Shown here: in pieces, positions 6,757 through 44,394 of the stretch | Layout of the letters: every line of letters begins with the position of its first letter | Numbering within the stretch: position 1 is the first letter of the stretch | IMG/VR virus record: IMGVR_UViG_2926661365_000002 | Source of the DNA: a virus | Lineage: Duplodnaviria; Heunggongvirae; Uroviricota; Caudoviricetes | Length of the DNA: 64,000 nucleotides | Strand: one strand, 5' to 3' | Translations under genes and position numbers: made by a program | The notes under the pieces: model-generated | The model's database searches: none | The model's input: the letters and a program-made list of their open reading frames with translations, nothing else | What the model was told of the DNA's origin: nothing

Positions 6757-8678
6757 GGGAAGAGCTCCGCATCTGCAGTGAATGTCCCCAGGCTGCTGCG
6801 GTTTGCCACAACGTTCGATCGGCCGGCGGTCATTCCGTCAACGGTGATGTTGGTCGCCGCGAATGTCCCAAGGGTCTCGGTCCCTATAACGGAAGGGACG
6901 ATTCGCTTGGTCGTCTGGAAGTAGACGTAGGACGAGACGCTACCGGCGATCGATGCGTTGGCAACGCCGTTGACATGGCCAAAGGCGCCAGTCTCGTAGT
7001 ACCGACGGCACAGGATCCTTTCAAAGATCTCGCCGCGCGTCCCACCCGGGTCCGCCTCATTCGAAGCGTCACCCTCAACCATCGAGACGTGCGCAAGGAC
7101 AATCCTGACCAGCGGGTTCGGAGAGTCCGTAGGCCGGCCAAGTCGAAGGCGAAGGCAGTCGTTGCCGTTGGTGCCGACTGTCTTGCCAACAATGCTCGGG
7201 ACGTCGAGCACTGCGGTGAACTTGGTGAGGACGCTAGTGGCCGTTATGGTGACCGGCGTCGAGATCACTGCGGCCGACGGGCTGCCCCCAGTGCCGAAAT
7301 ACTGCTCGACATCGATGGTCAGCTGCGTGTCGGATGCCGCCCGAGCCCAAAGGGTCACCGTGACCTTTTTCCCGGCGAGGGTTTCAACGCCCTCGATGGG
7401 CTGCATCAGGTGAGTAGGAAGTGAGCCTGCAACTGTTCGAGCCCAGAAGAGGCCGAACACTGACGCACCGCCAATGGCTTCGACATCCTCGGCCGTGAGG
7501 ACTTCTCGCCCGACCTGGCTTCCGCTGCCCGAGCCGCCCTTGAGCCACCACCGGTCGGCTGTGTACTGGGAGCCAGTGTCCCCGATGGTGAACGTGCCAA
7601 CGCCGCGCTGCCAGATGTGAAAGTCGCCGTTGAGAAGCTTGTTCCTGAGACCGGCGACCGGGTTTGAGCTTTTGATGAAGCCGGAGTTGGTTTCACTTTT
7701 GGTGTAGATGTCAGTCGCATCGTTCGCGAGGAAGCCTCGGAAGGACACGATGTCTCCAGCTGCCAGCCCTTCAACAAACGTGAACGTTCCTGTCGGGCCT
7801 GGGGCAAGGGTCACTTCTGCCGGCGCCCGCAGCATCACGCCGTTGACGTAGATGTCACCGGTCGAGTAGCCACCATCCACGGTGAAGGGGCCTTTCAGCC
7901 CCGTGGTTGCTGCGACATAGTCCTGCGTTCTGCGACCGCCGACCGAAACAGTAACCGTCGGCGCCCATCCCGTTGTCGTCAGCACCTTCTCGACATTCGG
8001 CGTGACCGAAGTGTCAAGGAACTTGGCTCCAAGTGGAATAACCGCAGGCGGGGTCGCTACCGGTGGCGCAGCCAATGGACCGTAGTAGAGGCTACCGATG
8101 GCGACGACGGCGGCATGCTTCGTGTCAACCACCGCCTTGTTCGCCGCGACGTCGGTCTGCGCTGCGAGAACCTGGGTGCGGAGAGTTTCGAGATCTGCGG
8201 TGGTGGCGATGGGGCCGATCGTCCAGTCGTCGAATGTCCCGGTGCCAATGCTGGACACCACGGCGACGACCAGCTCACCCGTTTCCGAGTCGTAGCTGGA
8301 GACGGTGCCGACCACAGACTGACCATACTCGCCGCCGGCATAGGCCATGACGAAAGGCGTCGGCGCGAAGTTGCGCCGCTGGGTCTCTCGGATGAGGAAT
8401 GTCCGGGAGCCGAGGCCGATATCTACGCTCGAGTCCGAGTTTGCGGAGAACAGAGCGCCAAGGTTCGAAGCCTCGATGAGCTGCTCATAGGCCGGAAGAA
8501 TGGCATCGTTAATGCGCTCCAAACCGACAGCGCGCAAAGCCTCAACCTGAGCCTCCCAGCTCGGAGCGAACGCGCGCAATTCCTCGATGGCATCGGCGAT
8601 GATCTTGGCTCGCTTGTTGAGCTCTTCCTGACTGAGTTTGGTGCTGCGGCCCCAGGCGGTGTCGGTATAGAGAGACAT
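6753..8678 (-). CDS. Tail fiber protein
   Basis: 641 aa. The N-terminal anchor/shaft is followed by the RBD-type domain bearing the LRNKLLNGDFxxWQRG motif. The position matches P2 gene H. Confidence 0.65.
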   Translation of the reverse strand: MSLYTDTAWGRSTKLSQEELNKRAKIIADAIEELRAFAPSWEAQVEALRAVGLERINDAILPAYEQLIEASNLGALFSANSDSSVDIGLGSRTFLIRETQRRNFAPTPFVMAYAGGEYGQSVVGTVSSYDSETGELVVAVVSSIGTGTFDDWTIGPIATTADLETLRTQVLAAQTDVAANKAVVDTKHAAVVAIGSLYYGPLAAPPVATPPAVIPLGAKFLDTSVTPNVEKVLTTTGWAPTVTVSVGGRRTQDYVAATTGLKGPFTVDGGYSTGDIYVNGVMLRAPAEVTLAPGPTGTFTFVEGLAAGDIVSFRGFLANDATDIYTKSETNSGFIKSSNPVAGLRNKLLNGDFHIWQRGVGTFTIGDTGSQYTADRWWLKGGSGSGSQVGREVLTAEDVEAIGGASVFGLFWARTVAGSLPTHLMQPIEGVETLAGKKVTVTLWARAASDTQLTIDVEQYFGTGGSPSAAVISTPVTITATSVLTKFTAVLDVPSIVGKTVGTNGNDCLRLRLGRPTDSPNPLVRIVLAHVSMVEGDASNEADPGGTRGEIFERILCRRYYETGAFGHVNGVANASIAGSVSSYVYFQTTKRIVPSVIGTETLGTFAATNITVDGMTAGRSNVVANRSSLGTFTADAELFP

Positions 8679-27634: not shown

Positions 27635-27877
27635 ATGGCCTTCACCGCCATCGAAAACATGAGGGTCGGCTATCTCGTCGGGTTCGAAGACCGAGAGAGC
27701 AACAGATACATCATCTTTGACCCCCGGGATCGCGGCTTCACCCTCTACACGGGCCGATACGGGCACGGATGCAATCCCATCACAGGACCGCGCGCCCGCC
27801 CCTACATCGACAAGCTCACCCCCGAACAAATCGCCCTCTGCACCGCCGCATCACTCTTGCGAAAGGACTCCCCATGA
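27635..27877 (+). CDS. Small paralog-family protein (member 1)
   Basis: 80 aa. Core DRGFTLYT and C-terminus LTPEQIALCTAASLL match the family consensus. Confidence 0.45.
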   Translation: MAFTAIENMRVGYLVGFEDRESNRYIIFDPRDRGFTLYTGRYGHGCNPITGPRARPYIDKLTPEQIALCTAASLLRKDSP

Positions 27878-29371: not shown

Positions 29372-29587
29372 ATGCCTGTTGAGATCCTGCCCGCCCGCCT
29401 TCAAGTCGAGGGACGCCCGACCGTCGTCCGGCTCGAGCCCATGACCAAGGCACCGCCCGCCGCCCCGCTTCGCACCCTCGTCCTGATGGTGGCGATCCTC
29501 GTCCTCGTCCTGGCCGCAGCCCTCGCCGCCTGCGCCGGCTACATCATCGAGTGGGCCGAGCGCTCCGCCTATTCGGAGCAGGCATGA
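29372..29587 (+). CDS. Small membrane protein (a start at motif ATG 29351 is also possible, in frame)
   Basis: Contains the TM segment LRTLVLMVAILVLVLAAALAACAGYII. Preceded by taacccgccacccATGG. Confidence 0.4.
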   Translation: MPVEILPARLQVEGRPTVVRLEPMTKAPPAAPLRTLVLMVAILVLVLAAALAACAGYIIEWAERSAYSEQA

Positions 29588-31149
29588 CCATGAACGCTAT
29601 CGTCACCCGCCAAACCGTCGAGCAGATCTGCGCCTTCCGCGACCAAGCAATCAAGCAATTCAGCAACGCATTCGAGAAGATCGAGGAGGCGTCCGACGCC
29701 ATCCGCCAAGCCCATAAGCTCTGGGAAGGGGCCGCTCCGGGCAAGCCCGGCTATTACTCGAACCTCAATCAGGAGGTGGAGTCGTTCTCGAATGCGGTGA
29801 GCCTGCCCGATCGCGACATCTACCTGCGCACAGCCAAGCGCCTGATCGACGTTACCGTGTGGACCCATGTGATCCAGCACACCGGCATTGAAAACCTGAT
29901 GGACAAGGAAGCGAAGGATCAGCTTCGATCGCAGATGCGGTATGTCCCCGAGCGCCGCGGCCGAGATGGCGAGATCATCAATCAGGATGAGATCGACCGC
30001 ATGCTTCCCGAGGTCACCCCCGAGAATGTCTATGCCACGCTCGAACGTTTTCAGGCGGACGCGGAGATGATCTTCCGGCGCGGCATCGTCAACGTCTTCT
30101 CGAAGCTCGACCGCCGCTTCCGCTCACACGACGGGTTCAAGGTCGGCTCACGCATGATCCTCGACTACCTCTGCAACAGCGACGGTTACTTCAGTACAAC
30201 GAGCGACCGCGCCGACCGTCTGAGTGACGTCGAGCGGGCGTTCCGAGTGCTGGAGGGGAACGCCGATCACGCCGGGTTCTACGGCATTGCCAATAAGATC
30301 TATCGCGAGCGGCGGAACTTCGAACGCGCCCGGTCTGAGCATGAGAACGCATACTTCAAGGTGCGCATCTTCATGAACGGCAACGCCCACCTCTGGTTTA
30401 CTCGCAAGGATCTGGTGGAAAGGATCAACAAGATCCTCGCCGAGCACTACGGGGAAACGCTGGGCGATGGCATGACCAAGGAAGCCGATCCGCTCAAGGA
30501 TGTGAAGACCACACCCGCCAAGCGTTATGGCTTCTTCCCCACGCCGGACGCGGCAGCCGAAGAAGTCTTCCGCAAGCTCAACACTTGGCAGTCCGCAACC
30601 AACGATCGCCTGCGCATCCTCGAACCGTCCGCCGGCACCGGCCAACTGGCCCGCCGCGCAGCCACCGTCGGCAACGATCTGGCAGAGTGGCAGCGCGAGA
30701 AGTTCAAGGACCACCGCTTCGACCACGCCGTCGACTGCATCGAGATCCAGCCGCACCTGGCCCACCAGCTGGAGGCGGAAGGCATCTACAATAGGGTGAC
30801 CTGCGCTGACTTCCTCACCGTCAAGCCCGACCCGTCCCGCCTTTACGACCGAGTGGTGATGAACCCGCCGTTCGACCGCGAGCGTGACATAGACCATGTG
30901 ATGCACGCTTTCGAGTTCCTGAAACCTGAGGGCCAGCTCGTCGCCATCATGTCGGCGGGCACCGAGTTTCGCGAGACGAAGAAGTCGATCGCCTTCCGCG
31001 ACCTGATGGAAAAGCTCGGCGCAGAATGGTCAGACCTACCCGCTGGCTCGTTCGCAGAGTCCGGCACCTACTGCAACACCGGCATCCTTGTGGTCTGGAA
31101 GAGCGGCAAGCCGCGTCGTTACGGTCGCCCCACCTGGGAAAAGCTCTAA
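29584..31149 (+). CDS. N6-adenine DNA methyltransferase (gamma-type motif order) fused to an approximately 340-aa N-terminal domain of unknown function
   Basis: FFPTP (motif X-like), EPSAGTGQL (motif I, FxGxG) and MNPPF (motif IV, NPPF) lie in the C-terminal approximately 180 aa. The N-terminal approximately 340 aa is unassigned. Start overlaps the previous stop (ATGA). Confidence 0.8.
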   Translation: MTMNAIVTRQTVEQICAFRDQAIKQFSNAFEKIEEASDAIRQAHKLWEGAAPGKPGYYSNLNQEVESFSNAVSLPDRDIYLRTAKRLIDVTVWTHVIQHTGIENLMDKEAKDQLRSQMRYVPERRGRDGEIINQDEIDRMLPEVTPENVYATLERFQADAEMIFRRGIVNVFSKLDRRFRSHDGFKVGSRMILDYLCNSDGYFSTTSDRADRLSDVERAFRVLEGNADHAGFYGIANKIYRERRNFERARSEHENAYFKVRIFMNGNAHLWFTRKDLVERINKILAEHYGETLGDGMTKEADPLKDVKTTPAKRYGFFPTPDAAAEEVFRKLNTWQSATNDRLRILEPSAGTGQLARRAATVGNDLAEWQREKFKDHRFDHAVDCIEIQPHLAHQLEAEGIYNRVTCADFLTVKPDPSRLYDRVVMNPPFDRERDIDHVMHAFEFLKPEGQLVAIMSAGTEFRETKKSIAFRDLMEKLGAEWSDLPAGSFAESGTYCNTGILVVWKSGKPRRYGRPTWEKL

Positions 31150-33199: not shown

Positions 33200-34105
33200 A
33201 TGAACGCAATGACCAAGATCGTTTCGACCTCCGCCACCCTCTCGACCCGCGCGCTCCTCGTCTCGCTGAGCATCAGCCAGTGGTCCGGACGGCGGCTCGA
33301 TCGGGCGATCACCAAGGAAGTCAACGACAAGCACAGCGCTGCGGCCGACGCCTCCCGCGTCAACAAGCTGCTGCTGCCACCCGACGCCCTCGCCGGCATC
33401 ACCAAGGTGGTCAGCGCCACGCGCTCCGGCTTCCTGGAACGCACCCTGCCGTGGCTCGACGACGGGCAGCGTGTCATGTCCTCCGATGCCTACCTCAACC
33501 ACACCAGCTGGATCCGCAAGCAGCGGGCGCAGTTCGAGGACAAGGTCGAAGAGTTCCTCGCCGACTACGACAAGCATGTGAACGATGCGAAGAAGCGGCT
33601 GGGCTCGATGTTCGATCAGAACGACTACCCCACCAAGGCTGAGCTGCGCGCCAAGTTCTCGATGTCGACCAACGTCCTGCCGGTACCGACCTCGAACGAC
33701 TTCCGCGCTGAGATGACCGAGGCCCAGGCTGACCTGATCCGCCGCCAGATCGAGGACACCGTGACCGAGGCCACCTCGATCGCAATCAAGGACATCTACC
33801 GCCGGGTGCATGACGTGGCCGAGCGCATGGTCGACAGGCTCAACGCTTACAAGCCCGCCGCCAAGCCGGGCGACAAGACCGAGGGCCAGTTCCGCGACTC
33901 CCTCGTCGGCAACGTCCGGGATCTCATCGGCATCCTGCCCTCGCTCAACATCCTTGGCGACCCGCAGCTCGCAGCCATGGCCGACAAGCTCAAGCCGCTG
34001 GCCGAGCACGACGCCGACGATCTCCGCAGCAGCGCCGACCTCCGCCGCAGCGTGGCAGCCGAGGCCAAGGCCATCCTCGATCAGGTCGCCGACTTCCTCG
34101 CGTGA
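33200..34105 (+). CDS. DUF3150-like hypothetical protein
   Basis: 301 aa. The N-terminus ...LSTRALLVSLSISQWSGRRLDRAITKEV resembles DUF3150 from memory. Confidence 0.45.
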   Translation: MNAMTKIVSTSATLSTRALLVSLSISQWSGRRLDRAITKEVNDKHSAAADASRVNKLLLPPDALAGITKVVSATRSGFLERTLPWLDDGQRVMSSDAYLNHTSWIRKQRAQFEDKVEEFLADYDKHVNDAKKRLGSMFDQNDYPTKAELRAKFSMSTNVLPVPTSNDFRAEMTEAQADLIRRQIEDTVTEATSIAIKDIYRRVHDVAERMVDRLNAYKPAAKPGDKTEGQFRDSLVGNVRDLIGILPSLNILGDPQLAAMADKLKPLAEHDADDLRSSADLRRSVAAEAKAILDQVADFLA

Positions 34106-34350
34106 CCGATCGCTTCCTGTATCAGCACATCGCCTCTCGGTTCTCGAACAGAATCGAGTGGGCCTTCTACGACAGGCTACGGACGGAGCGGGTGTTCCTG
34201 GTCTTTGACCTGCGCACCCGCACCCTCGAAGCGAAGAGGTCCGGCAACGGCCCGATGATCCCGGCCCCCGCATGGACTGACGAGATGGAAGCCGCGCTCC
34301 CACCCGAAGCCATGGCCGAGGCCATCGGCATAGCGATCACCATGAAATGA
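34102..34350 (+). CDS. Small hypothetical protein (GTG start)
   Basis: GTGA overlap with the upstream gene. Confidence 0.3.
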   Translation: MTDRFLYQHIASRFSNRIEWAFYDRLRTERVFLVFDLRTRTLEAKRSGNGPMIPAPAWTDEMEAALPPEAMAEAIGIAITMK

Positions 34351-34362
34351 AAGGACACAACC

Positions 34363-34848
34363 ATGGGCGACAGAGTGTCTGTCTACCTGAGACTAGGCGG
34401 CTGCCTGCAGTCGATCGAAGAGGCGGAGGAATTGATCGAAGCGCTGGCGCTCGACACCAACCTCGACACCAACGAGGAGGCGATGGCCCTGTTCAAGGAG
34501 GCGATCGCCACCGAAGACCCGATCGAAGCGGAAGCATATGAGGTTGACAGCGGCCAGCTAGAAAACATCGAGCCCTTCGTCCGAGACCGCAAGCACCTGT
34601 CCTGCGAGATCAGCTTCGGCAGAGGCGGCGGCTTCGACGCCGGCACCACCGTCATCCACGAGGGCGAGACGCACACCTTCCCCGATGGCAACACCGTCCC
34701 GCGCGATGCGGTCATCAAAGCACTGGACGAAGGCGGCGAGCAGGCTGTCCGCGATCTCATCAAGCGGACGCACTTCCTCCAGCACGAATGCGTCCCTCCC
34801 CTCACCGGTTCCGATGAGGTCCGGGGCTGGCTCTCCATCCTCGGCTGA
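34363..34848 (+). CDS. Acidic hypothetical protein
   Basis: 161 aa. Confidence 0.45.
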   Translation: MGDRVSVYLRLGGCLQSIEEAEELIEALALDTNLDTNEEAMALFKEAIATEDPIEAEAYEVDSGQLENIEPFVRDRKHLSCEISFGRGGGFDAGTTVIHEGETHTFPDGNTVPRDAVIKALDEGGEQAVRDLIKRTHFLQHECVPPLTGSDEVRGWLSILG

Positions 34849-34851
34849 GCC

Positions 34852-35211
34852 ATGGCAACCGGCATTCTCTATGGGCCGTATGCCCATCAGTTTACCGGGG
34901 ACAGGCTGAAATTCTGGGTACCAATGCGGAAGGACGACGACGCCAACATCAAGCGTTACGAAGTCCTCATCCTTCCCAATGGCCAGATGTCGACACGACA
35001 GCGCCCGATATTCGACGGCCCAGCGCCGTCACATCAGGCCCAGTTCTTCGACTTCCTGCCACCCGATGACCTCTCCCACCTTCGAAGCGATTGCTACCCT
35101 CGCTTCCCCCGGGACCGCATCCACGATGCGATCCTGCCCCTCCTCACGGACGAGCAAGCCGCCGTCCTTCTCTGCTATCGGCTCATCGGTGTGCCGAAGA
35201 AGTTCAAGTAA
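34852..35211 (+). CDS. Hypothetical protein
   Basis: 119 aa. Confidence 0.45.
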   Translation: MATGILYGPYAHQFTGDRLKFWVPMRKDDDANIKRYEVLILPNGQMSTRQRPIFDGPAPSHQAQFFDFLPPDDLSHLRSDCYPRFPRDRIHDAILPLLTDEQAAVLLCYRLIGVPKKFK

Positions 35212-35244
35212 CCCCGCAATCATGCGAACCAACAGGAGACCAGC

Positions 35245-36234
35245 ATGAACCTCAAGTCCGCAGCCATCGTCGCATCCACCTACCTCACGCACGACATCCC
35301 CTTCATGCTCTGGGGTGCGCCCGGCGTCGGCAAGTCCTCGCTTGTCGAGCAGCTCGCTGCCAACCGCAATCAGAAGGTCATCGACTTCCGCGCCTCGACC
35401 CGCGATGCCGTCGCCCTCATGGGCCTGCCGGATCTGCACGGTGAGACGACCAAGTGGAAGGTGCCCGACGAGTTCCCGCAGGTTGAACGTGATGGCCCCG
35501 AGGGCATCCTCTTCCTCGACGAGATCAACGCAGCCGCCCCCTCCATGCAGGCTGCGATGTTCGGCCTGGTCCTCGATCGCCGCGTCGGCGATTACACCCT
35601 GCCGCCCGGCTGGCGCGTCATCGCCGCCGGCAACCGCCAGTCTGACAAGGCTGCCGCCCAGCGCATGCCGTCGGCCCTCGCCAACCGCTTCGCTCACATC
35701 GACATCGAGCCCGATCTCGACACCTCGGTCGACCACTTCTACTCGATCGGCATTGACCCTCGCCTGATCGCCTTCCTCCGCTTCCGCCCCGGGCTGCTGC
35801 ACATGATGGACGGTCAGGATCTCCGGGCATTCCCCACGCCCCGCTCCTGGGAGCAGGTGTCCAAGGTGCTGAACATCGACGATCACCTCCGGCTGCAGGC
35901 CGTGTCCGGCATCGTCGGCCCCGGCCCCGCGGCTGAGCTGGAAGGATTCCTCCGGGTCTACCTGACGCTGCCGTCGATCGACCGCATTCTCCGCTCGCCG
36001 GAGTCGACCGAGGTTCCCACCGAAACCAGCGCCCGCTTCGCCCTCTCGGCAGCCTTGGCCCGCAAGGTGGACGCCTCCACCATCGAGCCGGCCTACACCT
36101 ACATGAAGCGCCTGCCCCGCGAGTATCAGATCATGTTCATGGTCGACGCCGTCCGGCACGACAACTCGCTCACCTCGACCATGACCTTCATCAACTGGTG
36201 CGCCGCCAACCGCGACGTCACGATCGGGGCCTGA
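35245..36234 (+). CDS. MoxR-like AAA+ ATPase
   Basis: Walker A GAPGVGKS, Walker B ILFLDEIN, sensor AAGN, about 330 aa. Preceded by taaccccgcaatcatgc. Confidence 0.8.
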   Translation: MNLKSAAIVASTYLTHDIPFMLWGAPGVGKSSLVEQLAANRNQKVIDFRASTRDAVALMGLPDLHGETTKWKVPDEFPQVERDGPEGILFLDEINAAAPSMQAAMFGLVLDRRVGDYTLPPGWRVIAAGNRQSDKAAAQRMPSALANRFAHIDIEPDLDTSVDHFYSIGIDPRLIAFLRFRPGLLHMMDGQDLRAFPTPRSWEQVSKVLNIDDHLRLQAVSGIVGPGPAAELEGFLRVYLTLPSIDRILRSPESTEVPTETSARFALSAALARKVDASTIEPAYTYMKRLPREYQIMFMVDAVRHDNSLTSTMTFINWCAANRDVTIGA

Positions 36235-36237
36235 GCC

Positions 36238-36591
36238 ATGGCCGTCGTCTGGATCACCGGCCCCATTGGCTACCAAAAGTCCTGGCGCCTCCTCGAGGAC
36301 GGGCGCCGCATCGTCGACGCCTGCCGCTGGGAGTTCGTTGGGATGGAGGACGACGGCACCTTCCGCCGCTGGAGCCTGCGTTTCAGCACTGAAACACGGG
36401 CCTTCACCGCCAACTCCCTCGCCGTCAAAGACTGGGAGAAGACGAAAGCCAAGGAGCTGGGCGAGATCTATCGCCCGGCTGCCGTCCTCCGATCGATGCT
36501 GCCCAAAGGCTCCACAGCCAAGGCGCTCGAGGCCATGCTTGGTGATGCCGGCGTGGCCGAGGCGATCGGTATCTCCCTCACCCAGAGGTGA
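36238..36591 (+). CDS. Small paralog-family protein (member 2)
   Basis: TRAFTANS core; C-terminus GVAEAIGISLTQR. Confidence 0.5.
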   Translation: MAVVWITGPIGYQKSWRLLEDGRRIVDACRWEFVGMEDDGTFRRWSLRFSTETRAFTANSLAVKDWEKTKAKELGEIYRPAAVLRSMLPKGSTAKALEAMLGDAGVAEAIGISLTQR

Positions 36592-36594
36592 CCC

Positions 36595-36939
36595 ATGCTG
36601 ATCGCCACCATCAAACACATGCTCGGCCCGTTCCGTAATGGCTTCGGGCTGGGCGGGCAGTCATGGCTGTTCATCGGGACGGATGAGGCTGGCAGACACC
36701 ACGTCTGGAAGCTCCACTTCGACTACAAGACCAGGCGCTTCGTCGCCCGGACGGTCCAGCACAATGACGCTCAGCGCTACGCCGAGCAGATGGCAACCGG
36801 CGACCTGTTCAAGTCGGACCATGTCCACCCGGAGTTCATCGTGGATCTCCGCAAGACCACCGCGCAAAACCTCAAAGCCCTCCTCACTGACGAGGACGTG
36901 GCCGACGCCCTGGGGAAAGCGCTCACCTACAAGGGATGA
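36595..36939 (+). CDS. Small paralog-family protein (member 3)
   Basis: N-terminus MLGPF; TRRFVART core; C-terminus LTDEDVADALGKALTYKG. Confidence 0.5.
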   Translation: MLIATIKHMLGPFRNGFGLGGQSWLFIGTDEAGRHHVWKLHFDYKTRRFVARTVQHNDAQRYAEQMATGDLFKSDHVHPEFIVDLRKTTAQNLKALLTDEDVADALGKALTYKG

Positions 36940-37346
36940 CCATGCCAATTTTCAGGAAGGTGCTCGGCCCCTTCAAGCCGATGTTCGAGACCAGCAACGG
37001 TCGCGTCGACAAGTTGCAGTGGCACTTCATCGTCATCCGCGATGACTACACCACCTGCCACTACACCCTCCAGTGCTACCCGCAGACCAACAAATACACG
37101 GCGGTCAACGGTGACCAGAACGAGGACAGCCTCGGCCGCAAGGTCAGGGCGATGGGCTCTGTCATCTACGGCAGCAGGAAGCCGACCGTCGTCCACGAGC
37201 GGATGTTCATCGAGCACGACACGACACCCGTCTCCTCCGGCGACACCATCTCGAACATCCTCAAGCAGCACCTGCGAACGGAAGACATCGCCAACATCAA
37301 CGCGGCCCGGCTGACCGGCAAGCTCGCCATCGCACTGAAAGGATAA
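36936..37346 (+). CDS. Small paralog-family protein (member 4)
   Basis: N-terminus VLGPFKPMF; C-terminus RTEDIANINAARLTGKLAIALKG. Confidence 0.45.
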   Translation: MTMPIFRKVLGPFKPMFETSNGRVDKLQWHFIVIRDDYTTCHYTLQCYPQTNKYTAVNGDQNEDSLGRKVRAMGSVIYGSRKPTVVHERMFIEHDTTPVSSGDTISNILKQHLRTEDIANINAARLTGKLAIALKG

Positions 37347-37349
37347 CCC

Positions 37350-38549
37350 ATGACCTCCGCGTCCAACCACATTCTCCAGGCTCGCACCGCGCTGCTCTGG
37401 GACTCGCCCTTCTTCGGCGTCCTCTCCATGCACCTGCTCGAGGTCGACGCCACCGACGACCCAACGGTCGACACCATGGCGACCGACGGCAAGCATCTGT
37501 TCTACGACAGCAAGTTCGTCCTCTCCCTGAGCAAGGCTGAGATGATCTTCGTCCTGGCTCACGAGATCATGCACAACGCCCTCGAGCACCACCTCCGCCG
37601 GCAGAACCGCAACCCCGGCCTTTGGAATGTGGCCTGCGACTTCGCCATCAACCTCGAACTCACCAAGGCCTTCGAGGAAGCCAAGGGCGTGAAGCCCAAG
37701 ATGCCAGCCGGTGGCCTGATCGATGCGCAGTTCGAGGGGATGAGCGCGGAGGAGATCTACCGCCACCTGCAACAGGAGATCGAGCAGAACGGCCACGCCA
37801 TGGCCGGCGGCGTCAAGATCGAGCCCGAACCCGGCCCGGATCTCGGCGGTTGCGGCGGCATCAAGGATGCCTGTGACCCCAGCGACGAGGCTGCCGTCAA
37901 CCACGCTCGAGCCGAGCTGCAGGCCCAGGTTCGCGGCGCTGCCATGGCGGCGGAGGGTGCGCAGGCTGGCTCCCTGCCCGGTTCCATTCAGCGTCTCATC
38001 GATCGCCTTCTCCAGCCCAAGGTTGACTGGCGCGCGATCCTTCGCAAGTTCATCGACGGCGTCGCCACCCGTGACTATGCCTGGTCGACGCCCAACCGCC
38101 GGCTGATCCCCCATCGCATCATCACGCCGAGCCTCGTGTCCGACTCCATCAGCCATCTGGTTGTGGCGGTCGACACCTCCGGCTCCATCAACGGCGAGAT
38201 CCTCAACGCCTTCGCTGCCGAGATCCGGGCAGCCTTTGGCGACGGCGCTGTCGATCGGATGTCGGTGCTCTATGCCGACGCCAAGGTGCAGCACGTCGAG
38301 GAGTTCGAGGCCGGCGACGAACTCGACCTTCACCCCAAGGGTGGCGGCGGCACTGCCTTCTCCGACACCTTCCGGATGATCCGCGATCGGTACCAGACCG
38401 GCGTCGCGACGATCTATCTCACCGACCTTTTCGTCTGCGACTACGGCGACGAACCCGACATGCCTGTCCTCTGGGCCGTGCATGGCCGGACCAAGGACTT
38501 CGACAATCTCTCCGTTCCCTTCGGCGAGCTCGTCAACATTTCCGACTAA
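37350..38549 (+). CDS. VWA-domain protein with N-terminal HExxH (HEIMH) zincin-like domain, DUF2201-type MoxR partner
   Basis: 399 aa. LAHEIMHNALEHH sits in the N-terminal half. A VWA-like block VVAVDTSGSINGEIL (MIDAS-like DxSxS) sits in the C-terminal half. The MoxR gene is upstream. Confidence 0.6.
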   Translation: MTSASNHILQARTALLWDSPFFGVLSMHLLEVDATDDPTVDTMATDGKHLFYDSKFVLSLSKAEMIFVLAHEIMHNALEHHLRRQNRNPGLWNVACDFAINLELTKAFEEAKGVKPKMPAGGLIDAQFEGMSAEEIYRHLQQEIEQNGHAMAGGVKIEPEPGPDLGGCGGIKDACDPSDEAAVNHARAELQAQVRGAAMAAEGAQAGSLPGSIQRLIDRLLQPKVDWRAILRKFIDGVATRDYAWSTPNRRLIPHRIITPSLVSDSISHLVVAVDTSGSINGEILNAFAAEIRAAFGDGAVDRMSVLYADAKVQHVEEFEAGDELDLHPKGGGGTAFSDTFRMIRDRYQTGVATIYLTDLFVCDYGDEPDMPVLWAVHGRTKDFDNLSVPFGELVNISD

Positions 38550-38588
38550 CCCTCTGCAACCCGCCACTGATGGCAACAGGAGACCACC

Positions 38589-38954
38589 TTGTCCTACCAA
38601 CTAAAGATCGACGAAATGCTCGACGCTCTCTGCAACGCCGGCCACCCCCTTGCATTGCAGTTCACCCAGCTGGTCGAGGCCACGGCCGACATCCTCGCCT
38701 CCGCCATCTGCCTGCAACTCGACATCGAATGCGAGTCCGCCACCTTCCAGGGCGCTGCCTTCGCTGGCACCTGCGTACCCTTCCGCGCAAAGCATGCAGG
38801 TCAGGCGCTGCCGGACGAGATCGCCCACTACGACGACCCGGCGGAATGGGAGTCCCCCTGCCCTGACTGCAAGGGTCTGGGCGCCTTCGCTGACACGGGT
38901 TTTCACTGCCCGGCTTGCCTCGGCGGCGGCACCATCACGGCAAAGGAGGAGTGA
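38589..38954 (+). CDS. Hypothetical protein with C-terminal zinc-ribbon (CPDCKG...FHCPACLGGG)
   Basis: 121 aa, TTG start. Preceded by the motif caacccgccactgatgg and an AGGAGA RBS. Confidence 0.45.
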   Translation: MSYQLKIDEMLDALCNAGHPLALQFTQLVEATADILASAICLQLDIECESATFQGAAFAGTCVPFRAKHAGQALPDEIAHYDDPAEWESPCPDCKGLGAFADTGFHCPACLGGGTITAKEE

Positions 38955-40246: not shown

Positions 40247-40561
40247 GTGAGCTACGAGGAGATTATCGCCCGAGAGCTGGAGTTCCACAGCTTCGACGTG
40301 GACTCCGGCCCCGACTATCTGGACTTCGACTTCTACTGGGCAGGAGACGGGGAAAAGTTGCGCCGTGTCTCCCTCCGGTTCAAGTCGGAGGGCGCACGGT
40401 TTTTGGTCGGCATCCGCGATATTGGCGGCGGTGATGGCCTTGGGGGCTGGGACTTCTTCGAGCAGTCTTATCAGCAGCACCTGCCCCGCCTGATCGACCT
40501 CCTCCCTCCGGAGGAGCTGGCCCGCCTCACCGTCGCAAGGATGGGGTTGCCCAGTGTATGA
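40247..40561 (+). CDS. Small protein, possible degenerate family member (GTG start)
   Basis: AAGGAAGG RBS. GARFLVGI core. C-terminus EELARLTVARMGLPSV. Confidence 0.4.
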   Translation: MSYEEIIARELEFHSFDVDSGPDYLDFDFYWAGDGEKLRRVSLRFKSEGARFLVGIRDIGGGDGLGGWDFFEQSYQQHLPRLIDLLPPEELARLTVARMGLPSV

Positions 40562-40868
40562 CCCCCTCCAAGGCCTCCGCCTGATGGGGCCGGCGCAGAT
40601 CCTCTTCGACCTCAACCTCGTGTGGTTTTTCACAAGGGACGGGGAGGAACTCTCGACAAACCAGCTGACATACTGGGCGGATACGCGCGCTTTCACAGCC
40701 ACCAACAAGGCCAAGGCCGGCTCGTATGGAGAGATAACCTACCAGATGTGGCCGGAAGTCAGCGCCAGCAGACTGGTCACCCTCCTCTCCGACGAGGAGA
40801 AAGCCAAGGCGGTTGCCGCCTCATTGGGAGTTAATCCATGCAAAGACGAGACAGGCTGGAAGGCCTGA
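40554..40868 (+). CDS. Small paralog-family protein (member 5)
   Basis: TRAFTATN core; C-terminus LSDEEKAKAVAASLGV. Confidence 0.45.
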   Translation: MYDPLQGLRLMGPAQILFDLNLVWFFTRDGEELSTNQLTYWADTRAFTATNKAKAGSYGEITYQMWPEVSASRLVTLLSDEEKAKAVAASLGVNPCKDETGWKA

Positions 40869-41134
40869 TATTCTGCAGCCTCGACAAATACGATCCTGAT
40901 GACCGCGTGCTCTGGATCAACATGATGATCCGCGAACGTGCAGGCATTCAGATGTTCATTCGATACGGAGCGGATACCCGTCTCCTGATGCCTCGACGCT
41001 CGCATGCCGGGCGGAACATAAAGCCATACTTCACAAACAAGCGCTTCATCGATGCGGTGATCGCCAAGATCCCAGACCGCATCATCGCCGAGCTGATCGC
41101 TCACTCGATCTCCTTGAGTACGAGGGAAAGTTGA
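40838..41134 (+). CDS. Small paralog-family protein (member 6)
   Basis: C-terminus IAELIAHSISLSTRES. The start is uncertain because of a 30-nt overlap with the upstream gene. Confidence 0.4.
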   Translation: MQRRDRLEGLIFCSLDKYDPDDRVLWINMMIRERAGIQMFIRYGADTRLLMPRRSHAGRNIKPYFTNKRFIDAVIAKIPDRIIAELIAHSISLSTRES

Positions 41135-41400
41135 TGGGTCTCGGTCCTGCCCCTCCGCCTCCGCCATCTGATGGCCCCTCGCGCCCCTTCAAGGTGAAGG
41201 ACATCCAACTCGGCCGCTTGCGCCGGAATGCTGCTGTCTTCTTCTACCCGTCCAGAAGAGCGTTCGTCTTGTACTGGGAAAACTGGGTTTCAACTAGGAT
41301 GCAGAGGCCCCTCACCGCCGAGGAGCTTCCCGAATACCTCACGAATGAGGAGATCGCACGATGCCTCGCCGCAGCTATTACGGCGAGCGCCACCCCTTAA
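41134..41400 (+). CDS. Small paralog-family protein (member 7)
   Basis: Poly-Pro N-terminus; SRRAFVLYW core; C-terminus LTNEEIARCLAAAITA. Confidence 0.45.
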   Translation: MGLGPAPPPPPSDGPSRPFKVKDIQLGRLRRNAAVFFYPSRRAFVLYWENWVSTRMQRPLTAEELPEYLTNEEIARCLAAAITASATP

Positions 41401-41832: not shown

Positions 41833-42068
41833 AGCGCGGTGACCCACTCGAACACTGGACATGGGGCGGCGACCCCAAAGGCCCGCCTCTCCTGCACCTG
41901 AAAGCCGGAAGGAAGCCGCTCGGCCTCTTCGTTGCCTACTATGTGCAAAGCCGCCGCTTCTACCTGCCCCGCAACCTGCGCCGGACTGAGATCAGCGCCG
42001 ACCGGATCGAGGAGAGCGCGGTGGCCGAAGCCCTCGGCGTCTCCCTCACCTACGAGGACAGCTCATGA
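41829..42068 (+). CDS. Small paralog-family protein (member 9)
   Basis: SRRFYLPRN core; C-terminus IEESAVAEALGVSLTYED. ATGA overlap with the upstream gene. Confidence 0.45.
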   Translation: MKRGDPLEHWTWGGDPKGPPLLHLKAGRKPLGLFVAYYVQSRRFYLPRNLRRTEISADRIEESAVAEALGVSLTYEDSS

Positions 42069-42271
42069 GCTGGGGACTCAGCAAGAAAACCCGACACGTC
42101 GCGGTCACAGCAGATGGGGTCATCATCTTCCACCGCCTCGATCGCACCTATCGGTGGGGCACCACCCCCGACTCCACACCGCTGACAGAGCAGGAGGTGA
42201 AGCGCTTCGTCTCGGACAACAACCACGCCGCCTGCATAGGCTGGGCACTCACATTCAAGGGAGGGGAATGA
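42065..42271 (+). CDS. Small paralog-family protein (member 10)
   Basis: DRTYRWGT core; C-terminus LTEQEVKRFVSDNNHAACIGWALTFKG. Confidence 0.45.
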   Translation: MSWGLSKKTRHVAVTADGVIIFHRLDRTYRWGTTPDSTPLTEQEVKRFVSDNNHAACIGWALTFKGGE

Positions 42272-42555
42272 CCAGCAACAATGTGAAACTGACCATCCAC
42301 AAAGGGGAGAAGCCCGTGCGCATCCATCCGAAAGGCCCCGAGCTTCCGTTTCACCAGATCAGCTACGACCCGATCGGCCGCACGTTCTCTTGGGAAGTCA
42401 AGGTGAAGGGCAGGCCACCGTCCCTTAACAACCCAACATCGAACGAAGGCCCGTTCCACCTCTACAAGCAGCTGACCCCGGAGGAGATCACCCGCTACAT
42501 CGACGACGAAACCATGGCCGAATGTTTGGCCATGTCCCTGACCCAGGCCCGCTAA
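42268..42555 (+). CDS. Small paralog-family protein (member 11)
   Basis: GRTFSWEV core; C-terminus LTPEEITRYIDDETMAECLAMSLTQAR. Confidence 0.45.
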   Translation: MTSNNVKLTIHKGEKPVRIHPKGPELPFHQISYDPIGRTFSWEVKVKGRPPSLNNPTSNEGPFHLYKQLTPEEITRYIDDETMAECLAMSLTQAR

Positions 42556-42592: not shown

Positions 42593-43105
42593 ATGACCCT
42601 TGAAGAACGAATAGCCAGCATCCTCGCCTACGACCCCGAGACCGGAGAGTTCACCTGGAAGGTGACGATCCATAGCCACGCGGTCAAAGGCCAGAAGGCG
42701 GGAAGCCAGCCGGCGCGTGGTGCCAAGCGGATACAGATTGACCGCAAGGTTCTCCTCTGCACCCGCCTCGCCTTCCTGCTCCATACCGGCAAATGGCCGG
42801 ACGGCGTCGTCATCCTCGCCGACAAGGACGACACAAACCTCCGCTTCAACAACCTGATCGACACAACCAAGTCGGCCCGGATGCGGAGACAGGACAAGCC
42901 GCACAAGCGCACCAAGAGCGGGCTCATCGGTGCTCACTTCCATAAAAAATCCGGGAAGTGGGCGGCGCGGATCTCATGGAAGACCGTGAAGAAGAAACAC
43001 ATCGGCCTCTTCGACACCCCCGAAGAGGCGAGTGCCGCCTATTGGGCAAGACGAAACCAACTGCAACAGGAGAACGACAATGAAAGACACACCGCATCCG
43101 ACTGA
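42593..43105 (+). CDS. HNH homing-type endonuclease with AP2 DNA-binding domain
   Basis: 170 aa. The N-terminus YDPETGEFTWK... is typical of the HNH_3 family. The C-terminus KSGKWAARISWKTVKKKHIGLFDTPEEASAAYWARR is AP2-like. Confidence 0.65.
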   Translation: MTLEERIASILAYDPETGEFTWKVTIHSHAVKGQKAGSQPARGAKRIQIDRKVLLCTRLAFLLHTGKWPDGVVILADKDDTNLRFNNLIDTTKSARMRRQDKPHKRTKSGLIGAHFHKKSGKWAARISWKTVKKKHIGLFDTPEEASAAYWARRNQLQQENDNERHTASD

Positions 43106-43693: not shown

Positions 43694-43818
43694 CGCCCCC
43701 GCCTGCCCCATCCACGGGGCAGGCACCCCCACCCCTGACATCGCTGAAAGCCGCCCGGTGAGGAGCATCCCGCTCCTGACCCGGCCGCTGTTGGCCGTTA
43801 ACCCCCAAGAGGTAAATC

Positions 43819-44394
43819 ATGAATCGAAACTCCATCCTTCTCTCCGCCTTCCTTGCTCTCTCCGCTACCACCGCCATTGCCGGACCCGATGCACCCGTGT
43901 GCCAGGAACCCGGCTGGTCGGTAGGCAAGGTCTTTGCCGGATGCTTCGGCCGCGCCGAGGTTGGTGGCGGCGGAAGCGTCCTTCCCGTCTCCGCTACCCC
44001 CGCTCCGGTGACCCCCGTCCCGGTCGATCCCACGCCGACCGACCCGACCGATCCGGGCGATGGCGAAACCCCTGTTGACCCCACCGATCCGGGCGACGGT
44101 GACGGCGACAACGGTGACGGCGATGGCGACGGCGAAACCCCGACCGACCCGACGGACCCGGGCGATGGCGACGGTGACAACGGCGGTGAGCCGACTGACC
44201 CCGGCGCAGGCGACGGCGATGGCGACGGCGGTACCGGCGGCGACGGTGACACTGGCGGCGATGCCGGCGACGGCGATACCGGCTCCGACACGGGCGACAC
44301 GGGCGGTTCCGACGGCGATGATGCCGGCGGCGACACGGGTGGCGATACCGGCGGCGACGCTGGCGGCGACACGGGTTCCGACACCACCGAGTAA
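43819..44394 (+). CDS. Secreted Asp/Gly/Thr/Pro-rich repetitive acidic protein
   Basis: Sec signal MNRNSILLSAFLALSATTAIA-GP. Repeats TDPTDPGDGDGDNGDGDGDGETP and GGDTGGDAGGDTG. Good RBS AAGAGG. Confidence 0.6.
   Translation: MNRNSILLSAFLALSATTAIAGPDAPVCQEPGWSVGKVFAGCFGRAEVGGGGSVLPVSATPAPVTPVPVDPTPTDPTDPGDGETPVDPTDPGDGDGDNGDGDGDGETPTDPTDPGDGDGDNGGEPTDPGAGDGDGDGGTGGDGDTGGDAGDGDTGSDTGDTGGSDGDDAGGDTGGDTGGDAGGDTGSDTTE

Follow-up and report, generated by a model that had tools for sequence, protein, structure and literature searches.

Why do three small genes stand between the two genes of a MoxR–VWA pair, and do their products work with it? The question is raised by a stretch of 64,000 nucleotides (nt) from the viral record IMGVR_UViG_2926661365_000002 (Caudoviricetes), hereafter the window, where the genes for a MoxR-type AAA+ ATPase and for a zincin-like metallopeptidase fused to a von Willebrand factor type A (VWA) domain lie on the + strand with three small genes, p1, p2 and p3, between them. 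The window belongs to a myovirus-type (sheath-bearing) temperate prophage of Peteryoungia aggregata (Rhizobiaceae), has a G+C content of 63%, and encodes in p1 an exact match to hypothetical protein J2045_003372 of P. aggregata LMG 23059. Both large proteins are of known kinds; the novelty lies in an undescribed family of small proteins whose insertion between them is conserved and turns the pair into a ternary MoxR–VWA cassette specific to this lineage. We rate the chance that the small proteins are functional partners of the ATPase–VWA–protease pair, as clients or adaptors, as roughly even.

Five tightly packed genes within a longer string

All five open reading frames (ORFs) are present on the + strand in the order MoxR (35245-36234, 329 amino acids (aa)), p1 (36238-36591, 117 aa), p2 (36595-36939, 114 aa), p3 (36936-37346, 136 aa) and zincin–VWA (37350-38549, 399 aa), and they carry the coding signature of the genome (G+C at third codon positions, GC3, of 0.84-0.90). 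The four junctions are, in order, TGA, 3 nt and ATG; again TGA, 3 nt and ATG; an ATGA in which the start of p3 overlaps the stop of p2; and TAA, 3 nt and ATG. A Shine-Dalgarno-like stretch precedes the start at every one of them, and related loci likewise have start/stop overlaps or spacers of 1-3 nt throughout. An earlier note on this DNA, made from its letters alone, had described a pair split by three tightly coupled paralogs, and both the split and the coupling were borne out. Its proposal of a five-gene operon fared less well. Tight + strand packing spans at least 33200 to past 38954, no sigma-70-like promoter was predicted between 32.8 and 39.2 kb and no + strand terminator was predicted inside the five genes, so the unit is longer than five genes. 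A near-identical 15-nt motif, 'CAACAGGAGACCA(G/C)C', with a Shine-Dalgarno sequence inside it, occurs at 35220-35244 and 38564-38588, before the start of the MoxR gene and before that of the gene that follows VWA; these two junctions are the only ones in the string with spacers of more than 30 nt.

The ATPase and the zincin–VWA protein

The 329-aa product is N4 gp24-like and matches Pfam AAA_5 (E=1.8e-9, 38.2 bits against a cut-off of 22) and, over residues 2-324, PHROG 1297 (E=1.4e-86). Its Walker A motif reads GAPGVGKS (residues 24-31, 35314-35337) and its Walker B motif ILFLDE (residues 88-93, 35506-35523), and the nearest sequences of solved structure are the AAA modules of Midasin. Judged by these matches it is a member of the MoxR-type AAA+ family with intact motor motifs. 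It is 94% identical in the two closest loci, L016 (GCA_027489295.1) and L017 (a Logan assembly), with ratios of nonsynonymous to synonymous substitution rates (dN/dS) of 0.13-0.14. The gene for its VWA partner follows 1.1 kb further on within the string, and all related loci keep the two linked.

The 399-aa partner, N4 gp25-like, contains DUF2201_N (residues 6-262, E=4.3e-47, 161.4 bits) followed by DUF2201 (residues 270-397, E=2e-20, 73.6 bits), both above the Pfam cut-offs and in N-to-C order, and matches PHROG 1314 (E=3.1e-94). The HExxH sequence, HEIMH, occupies residues 71-75 (37560-37574), and the metal ion-dependent adhesion site (MIDAS) of the VWA domain is represented by DTSGS (38172-38186), GGGGT (38340-38354) and YLTD (38415-38426). 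The N-terminal metallopeptidase-like domain claimed in the earlier note is thus present, and the check with hidden Markov models (HMMs) that it had called for returned AAA_5, DUF2201_N and DUF2201. Residues H71, E72, H75, D275, S277, S279, T335 and D359 are unchanged in nine VWA orthologs, down to 50% identity, so the zincin and MIDAS activities are probably both live. The protein is 87% identical to its counterparts in L016 and L017 (dN/dS 0.18-0.19). The libraries searched held no solved structure or assay for the DUF2201_N+DUF2201 (zincin–VWA) family. Many RefSeq and GenBank phage records, and PHROG 1314 itself, label N4 gp25-like zincin–VWA proteins 'HNH endonuclease' or 'homing endonuclease' (for example gp25 of NC_008720 and gp576 of NC_023719), where Pfam instead finds a metallopeptidase and a VWA domain; the label looks like a propagated mis-annotation.

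A previously undescribed family of small proteins

The three small genes are paralogs, as had been proposed: p1 and p2 match each other at E=2e-9, p1 and p3 marginally (E=1.6e-3), and each of the three scores 84-104 bits (p1 103, p3 104) against a family HMM for which most of the sequences were homologs from databases. Their amino-acid identity to the L016 and L017 copies is 57-87%, with dN/dS of 0.17-0.46 (0.22-0.46 for p1 and 0.23-0.34 for p3). With such ratios p1-p3 are real proteins under purifying selection, evolving faster than MoxR and VWA.

An exhaustive search of 1.84 billion representatives with a profile of 14 candidate members from the window (A1) returned no more than 49 proteins at E<1e-3; with two exceptions these are 88-129 aa in length. 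The family alignment (A2) holds 43 members, and conservation by column was computed over 56 sequences. Members are about 105-135 aa in size; near-invariant residues, in p2 numbering, are G11-P12, W24, F26, L40, R47, L93 and A103, and a C-terminal stretch, 'L..L.(D/P)E(E/D)(I/V)A.A.A..(I/L)', is shared as a two-helix motif. A confident AlphaFold2 model of p2 (mean predicted local distance difference test score, pLDDT, 87; predicted template modelling score, pTM, 0.78) has four antiparallel strands in a meander over residues 6-53, then a helix at 57-68 and, towards the C-terminus, two more at 89-94 and 99-111.

None of the 43 members matched Pfam at E≤0.01, and the same set gave two marginal PHROG matches only (E≈0.006). 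The family had no match in NCBIfam or PADLOC, and p1 had none in Pfam, PHROG, NCBIfam or PADLOC. No structural relative was found, and no known client of a MoxR/VWA system proved analogous in structure or sequence. With tblastn, neither p3 nor a type-C protein (the p3-like subtype, see below) matched any of 50,697 phage genomes, and no isolated phage in that collection (INPHARED) carries the family; blastn of the whole 3.3-kb region against the same genomes gave zero matches, and a search of viral contigs for related loci seeded with p1 gave nothing. By these searches the family is a previously undescribed one, absent from Pfam and PHROGs.

Its composition raised the possibility that the small proteins are DNA- or RNA-binding regulators or nucleoid-like proteins, with nothing but expression timing behind their proximity to MoxR and VWA. 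Most members are basic (isoelectric point 9-11, net charge +5 to +13), and the two helices of the C-terminal motif look like the helix 2-turn-helix 3 part of helix-turn-helix (HTH) proteins; 'L(T/P)xEE(I/V)AxAxxxS(I/L)' may recall HTH sequences. However, none of the 43 members found an HTH or any other Pfam domain at the threshold above, and ten of them gave nothing meaningful, and no HTH, even at E≤10. The proteins stop right after the second helix, leaving no full recognition helix and wing, the copies in the window carry no more than a weak basic charge (+2 to +5) and those of L017 are neutral, and the conserved placement of the genes, described below, would be left unexplained. We consider this explanation improbable.

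Conservation of the gap arrangement in relatives

Related loci whose VWA protein is at least 50% identical to that of the window, all of them in Hyphomicrobiales prophages, are here called the clade. In 18 of 19 independent clade loci, two to five family members lie between MoxR and VWA, which by these counts is far more than chance would place there; the layout called for comparison in the earlier note is therefore one that related phages keep. L016 and L017 reproduce it as MoxR-117-114-134-VWA. Six divergent representatives of the family (~20-30% identical to p2) were all encoded between an AAA_5 gene and a DUF2201_N+DUF2201 gene (6/6), in gaps of two to five small genes, nearly all of them family members.

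The same picture came from a scan that was seeded with VWA, took one genome per species and was blind to the small family. It returned 80 loci. All ten with a VWA protein at least 50% identical (in Ancylobacter, Pseudochrobactrum, Brucella pecoris, B. tritici, Roseibium, Mesorhizobium, Ensifer, Aurantimonas and two Rhizobium) have two to five family members in the gap, and with the window, L016 and L017 they enter the count of 18/19. At 37-38% identity, two Bryobacteraceae loci have a DUF3150 gene filling the gap instead, and in ~60 loci at 25-30% MoxR and VWA abut or overlap without a family member. On this sampling the small family is confined to the clade. Protein lengths are alike with and without the family, and we found no support for the small proteins being fission products of a larger MoxR or VWA protein.

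All-against-all comparison and subtype HMMs resolved the in-gap members into orthologous types A (p1-like), B (p2-like) and C (p3-like), mostly ordered A-B-C. Type A orthologs hold the first position of the gap in L016, L017, L019, L021, L024, L026, L029, L030, L034 and L035, and type C, the most widespread subtype, occurs in nearly all clade loci. Persistence was counted over 15 clade loci chosen to be non-redundant: MoxR, VWA and family members in the gap each scored 15/15, a DUF3150 gene 13/15, and the other flanking genes of the window 0-7/15.

Dispersed copies in the same genome

The family is not restricted to the gap. Scored with a family HMM that had not been trained on the dispersed copies, nine ORFs of the window are members at E<1e-3, all on the + strand: p1-p3 (36238, 36595 and 36936) and divergent members at 40554-40868 (E=8.6e-11), 34102-34350 (82 aa, E=9.7e-8; dN/dS 0.35-0.51 against L016/L017), 41131-41400 (E=2.1e-6), 27635-27877 (80 aa, E=9.5e-6), 42268-42555 (95 aa, identical to representative P0014; E=2.5e-5 on the enclosing ORF 41932-42555) and 40838-41134 (E=7.1e-4). 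Five or six further ORFs of the window share the C-terminal motif only, for a total of perhaps ~14 by motif. Between 40247 and 42555 (+), about eight successive short ORFs (68-104 aa) share a C-terminal helix, 'L(T/P)xEExA…(L/I)(T/S)', and this run, distant from MoxR and VWA, reads as a tandem array of divergent family copies. A repeated DNA element was ruled out as the source of the motif, since the copies are only 65-76% identical in DNA and conserved at the protein level in a high-GC genome. Within the family, conservation is highest in the gap: copies there score 84-116 bits, the dispersed ones 19-38 bits.

Pairs that are split, swapped or without the family

The statement in the earlier note that MoxR and VWA genes normally adjoin holds for N4 and for the ~60 distant bacterial pairs and does not hold in general, split pairs being common in phages and plasmids. 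ORF34 stands between the pair in phage LIT1, two small ORFs directly follow the ATPase gene in PJN101, nine genes separate the pair in Bacillus phage G, and 4.5 kb separates the two genes on a conjugative plasmid of Simplicispira. In phage 0305phi8-36 the corresponding genes, orf63 and orf66, do not adjoin and are non-essential (PMC3357382). Aligned with hhalign, the small family gave a probability of <1% with LIT1 ORF34 and likewise with a small gap ORF of locus L006, so the gap ORFs of other phage lineages are unrelated to the family.

Several observations weigh against a functional tie between the small proteins and the pair. The first is locus L005 (IMG/VR), which has the pair (MoxR 91% and VWA 80% identical to those of locus L023) and no family genes in the gap. 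DNA homology between L005 and L023 ends exactly at the end of MoxR and returns just before VWA; the type B and C genes of L023 (7678-8360, +) are replaced in L005 by two membrane- or secreted-like ORFs (6974-7887, -), and no remnant of the family was found in the L005 gap. From this clean swap it follows that the pair can be kept without adjacent family genes and that the gap is a swap site. Related phages with an identical pair and no genes in between, along with a lack of expression of the inserted ORFs, were what the earlier note had said would refute its idea, and L005 goes part of the way. Second, the sets of subtypes in the gap vary (A-B-C, B-C, A-C, C-B or B only, some with extra divergent copies) and are therefore a poor fit to a complex of fixed stoichiometry. 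Third, divergent copies are scattered through the early region of the same genome, far from the pair. Fourth, the last helix offers a conserved acidic position (E100/D101 in p2 numbering) that is acidic in only ~70% of members. Finally, shared ancestry within one phage clade may partly explain the conserved order.

In a rival explanation the small genes are hitch-hikers: the gap would be a permissive recombination slot for an abundant, fast-evolving family of early genes, co-expressed with MoxR and VWA and acting independently of them, for example in anti-defence or host takeover. The L005/L023 swap and the scattered copies are what such a slot would give, and so are the unrelated cargo in other gaps (LIT1, PJN101, phage G, the DUF3150 gene of L006-L011 and the minus-strand ORFs of L005), the variation in copy number and subtype content, and the faster evolution of the small genes relative to the large ones. 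On the other hand, family members are retained in the gap, with orthologous subtypes, in 18/19 loci down to 50% VWA identity, where other small neighbours persist in 0-7/15; the in-gap copies are the best conserved of their family; and translational coupling to both large genes is seen at every locus. We consider hitch-hiking unlikely, though far from negligible. The functional tie proposed in the earlier note accordingly stands in part, favoured by gap retention in all but one locus, by orthologous subtypes and by persistence, and disfavoured by L005 and the dispersed copies. If the small proteins are partners of the pair, their variable subtypes, faster evolution and dispersed copies speak more for exchangeable adaptors or clients than for a heteromeric structure of fixed make-up.

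Position in the prophage and the DUF3150 companion

The cassette sits in a long + strand run of tightly packed genes (~27.6-44.9 kb; G+C at first, second and third codon positions ≈0.62, 0.42 and 0.83), an early/replication block far from the structural module, which lies on the opposite strand (~143-23700, -) and comprises tape measure, tail sheath, a fused protease/major head protein, portal and large terminase. Its early/replication neighbours in the window are DnaB, downstream on the - strand, and a 532-aa protein with a DUF4942 domain and a C-terminal methyltransferase-like region (29551-31149, +; PADLOC mad2-like, E=9e-13; PHROG 'DNA methyltransferase'). Homologs of the latter recur close to the cassette in relatives, where DnaN and a 3'-phosphoadenosine-5'-phosphosulfate reductase are also nearby.

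The most persistent companion outside the gap is a 301-aa DUF3150 protein (33200-34105, +), which the earlier note had passed over and whose Pfam match is at the cut-off (E=1.4e-5). Homologs adjoin MoxR and VWA in all phage-type loci; they lie upstream of the pair in the clade of the window, and between its two genes in L006-L011, in L036-37 and on the plasmid pBMC401. Companionship with DUF3150 was noted for the window, L006-L011, L036-37 and L107. An AlphaFold2 model of the protein (pLDDT 87) is mostly helical and found no informative match in the PDB.

Plasmids carry the pair as well: the VWA protein matches 57 plasmid records in PLSDB, 29 of them typed as conjugative. On pBMC401, a conjugative plasmid of Burkholderia ambifaria and the one such plasmid tested for DUF3150 between the pair, a MoxR–DUF3150–VWA triad stands beside PRTRC and type IV secretion system genes. 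All three proteins are homologous to those of the window (E=1.3e-51, 2.5e-36 and 4.6e-64, respectively), and the triad resembles the cassette in being a tight gene string on a mobile element; it differs in having the DUF3150 gene in the gap and in lacking the small-protein family.

Comparison with known systems

Both large proteins are homologous to the gp24 (AAA+) and gp25 (vWFA) proteins of phage N4, with tblastn identities of 31-37%, and both pairs lie in an early or middle region beside replication genes. In N4-like phages gp24 and gp25 are among the 14 core genes, of unknown function and with middle expression (PMC4193335). They are adjacent in N4, with a 167-nt spacer, where three genes intervene here. 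N4-like phages are Schitoviridae, whereas the window comes from a sheath-bearing temperate prophage; the cassette has neither the adjacent genes nor the schitovirus core that would define an N4-like module.

Jumbo phages encode a MoxR plus metallopeptidase-vWA pair that has been described as chaperone and cochaperone, with a proposed role in virion assembly (Iyer, Anantharaman, Krishnan, Burroughs & Aravind 2021, PMC7824862). The architecture of the two proteins is the same, with the zincin fused N-terminal to vWA, and PA5oct-type phages show ~32% identity; unlike here, no intervening conserved family of small proteins is described in that paper. Should the pair of the window act likewise, MoxR and VWA would fold or process structural proteins, as shown for the tail of Acidianus two-tailed virus (ATV), and the small paralogs would be assembly factors or minor subunits. 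Apart from the proposal for the homologous jumbo-phage pair, this would account for several small paralogs, which could co-assemble. It sits poorly with the location of the cassette away from the structural module, with the expression of N4 gp24 and gp25 as middle genes (PMC4193335) and with the triad on pBMC401, a plasmid that makes no virions; the triad argues for a role in establishment or host interaction rather than morphogenesis. Phages and a conjugative plasmid have the module in common, and it lies among early/replication genes, so that a part in virion morphogenesis is unlikely; the virion-assembly explanation as a whole we regard as highly improbable.

A third point of reference is provided by the MoxR–vWA-centric ternary conflict systems, VMAP/iSTAND (Kaur, Burroughs, Iyer & Aravind 2020, PMC7159879). 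They likewise join a MoxR–vWA couple to a lineage-defining third component, with associated peptidases, and a further likeness lies in small proteins that evolve fast and keep their conservation at the C-terminus. The third component of the cassette differs in consisting of paralogs of 105-135 aa that have no Pfam match, and VMAP/iSTAND systems are found on chromosomes of multicellular bacteria, the cassette on prophages and its family-less form on plasmids. A VMAP-type ternary system was rejected, as the small proteins have no Pfam or PADLOC match and are too small for VMAP-C/M or STAND domains. So was a known anti-phage defence system: PADLOC gave generic AAA matches only (MoxR, E≈4e-3) and no match to VWA, p1-p3 or DUF3150.

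The MIDAS of Midasin/Rea1 binds the small ubiquitin-like (UBL) domains of Ytm1 and Rsa4, and CbbQ–CbbO, NorQ–NorD and RavA–ViaA are alike. In such systems an AAA_5-type motor and a MIDAS/VWA module take hold of a small client or adaptor domain by an acidic residue and remodel a complex, and by analogy the pair of the window would do likewise. The small proteins here are not beta-grasp UBLs, and the idea that their conserved acidic position is a MIDAS ligand is weak because of the members in which it is not acidic.

Other genes around the cassette

A 161-aa protein (34363-34848, +) has homologs in 1/15 clade loci and no match in Pfam or NCBIfam. Directly upstream of MoxR, a 119-aa protein (34852-35211, +; dN/dS 0.15-0.19) has homologs in 6/15. 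It aligns with the small family by eye and with MAFFT and was missed by the independent HMM, and on the C-terminal motif only it is a possible divergent member. Directly after VWA, a 121-aa protein with a TTG start (38589-38954, +) carries a DnaJ/anti-TRAP-like CxxCxGxG…CxxCxGxG zinc finger, with matches to Pfam Anti-TRAP (E=3.2e-4) and NCBIfam RtpA (E=7e-5) that are both below cut-off; it is conserved only in L016, L017 and L029.

Further along the + strand, directly after the paralog array, a homing-endonuclease-like protein with HNH_3 and AP2 domains is encoded at 42593-43105, and an ORF at 43816-44394 combines a signal-peptide-like N-terminus with long low-complexity repeats of Asp, Gly, Thr and Pro (PTDPTDPGDGDGDNG…). 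No tRNA genes were found in the window.

Proposed role of the small proteins

Given the conserved placement of the small family, we propose that its members are a lineage-specific third component of the module, which would dock on the VWA/MoxR complex as clients or specificity adaptors. By analogy with the Midasin-type machines, the docked proteins may be remodelled, loaded or clipped by the MoxR/zincin-VWA machine. Together with DUF3150, the module would probably act soon after the genes of the element are switched on, and its targets would be nucleoprotein or defence targets of the host or the element rather than the assembling virion. Three points we infer only, by comparison with these systems: that the proteins interact physically, which way the action runs (client, adaptor or regulator) and what it is aimed at. 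The literature searched held no functional study of DUF2201, DUF3150, PRTRC or N4 gp24/gp25.

A bolder version, which we think quite unlikely, would make the A, B and C proteins interchangeable adaptors that pass host proteins, through the VWA MIDAS, to the fused zincin and the unfoldase MoxR, the whole being a modular protease for host takeover borne by phages and plasmids. Each small protein would then recognise a different host defence or nucleoid factor, and the repertoire, two to five in the gap plus the dispersed copies, would expand and turn over in an arms race. If true, this would be a first way into the function of the core pair N4 gp24/gp25.

The cassette is limited to one clade. 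The MoxR and zincin–VWA pair itself belongs to the few-member core of N4-like phages and is widespread in jumbo phages, cyanophages, prophages and conjugative plasmids. The presence of the triad with DUF3150 on a conjugative plasmid shifts the hypothesis for this pair from virion assembly to establishment in a new host. A clade that keeps dedicated small partners would supply concrete client or adaptor candidates for this widespread module, in hosts that can be cultivated: Peteryoungia aggregata LMG 23059, Brucella tritici LMG 18957 and Pseudochrobactrum asaccharolyticum DSM 25619.

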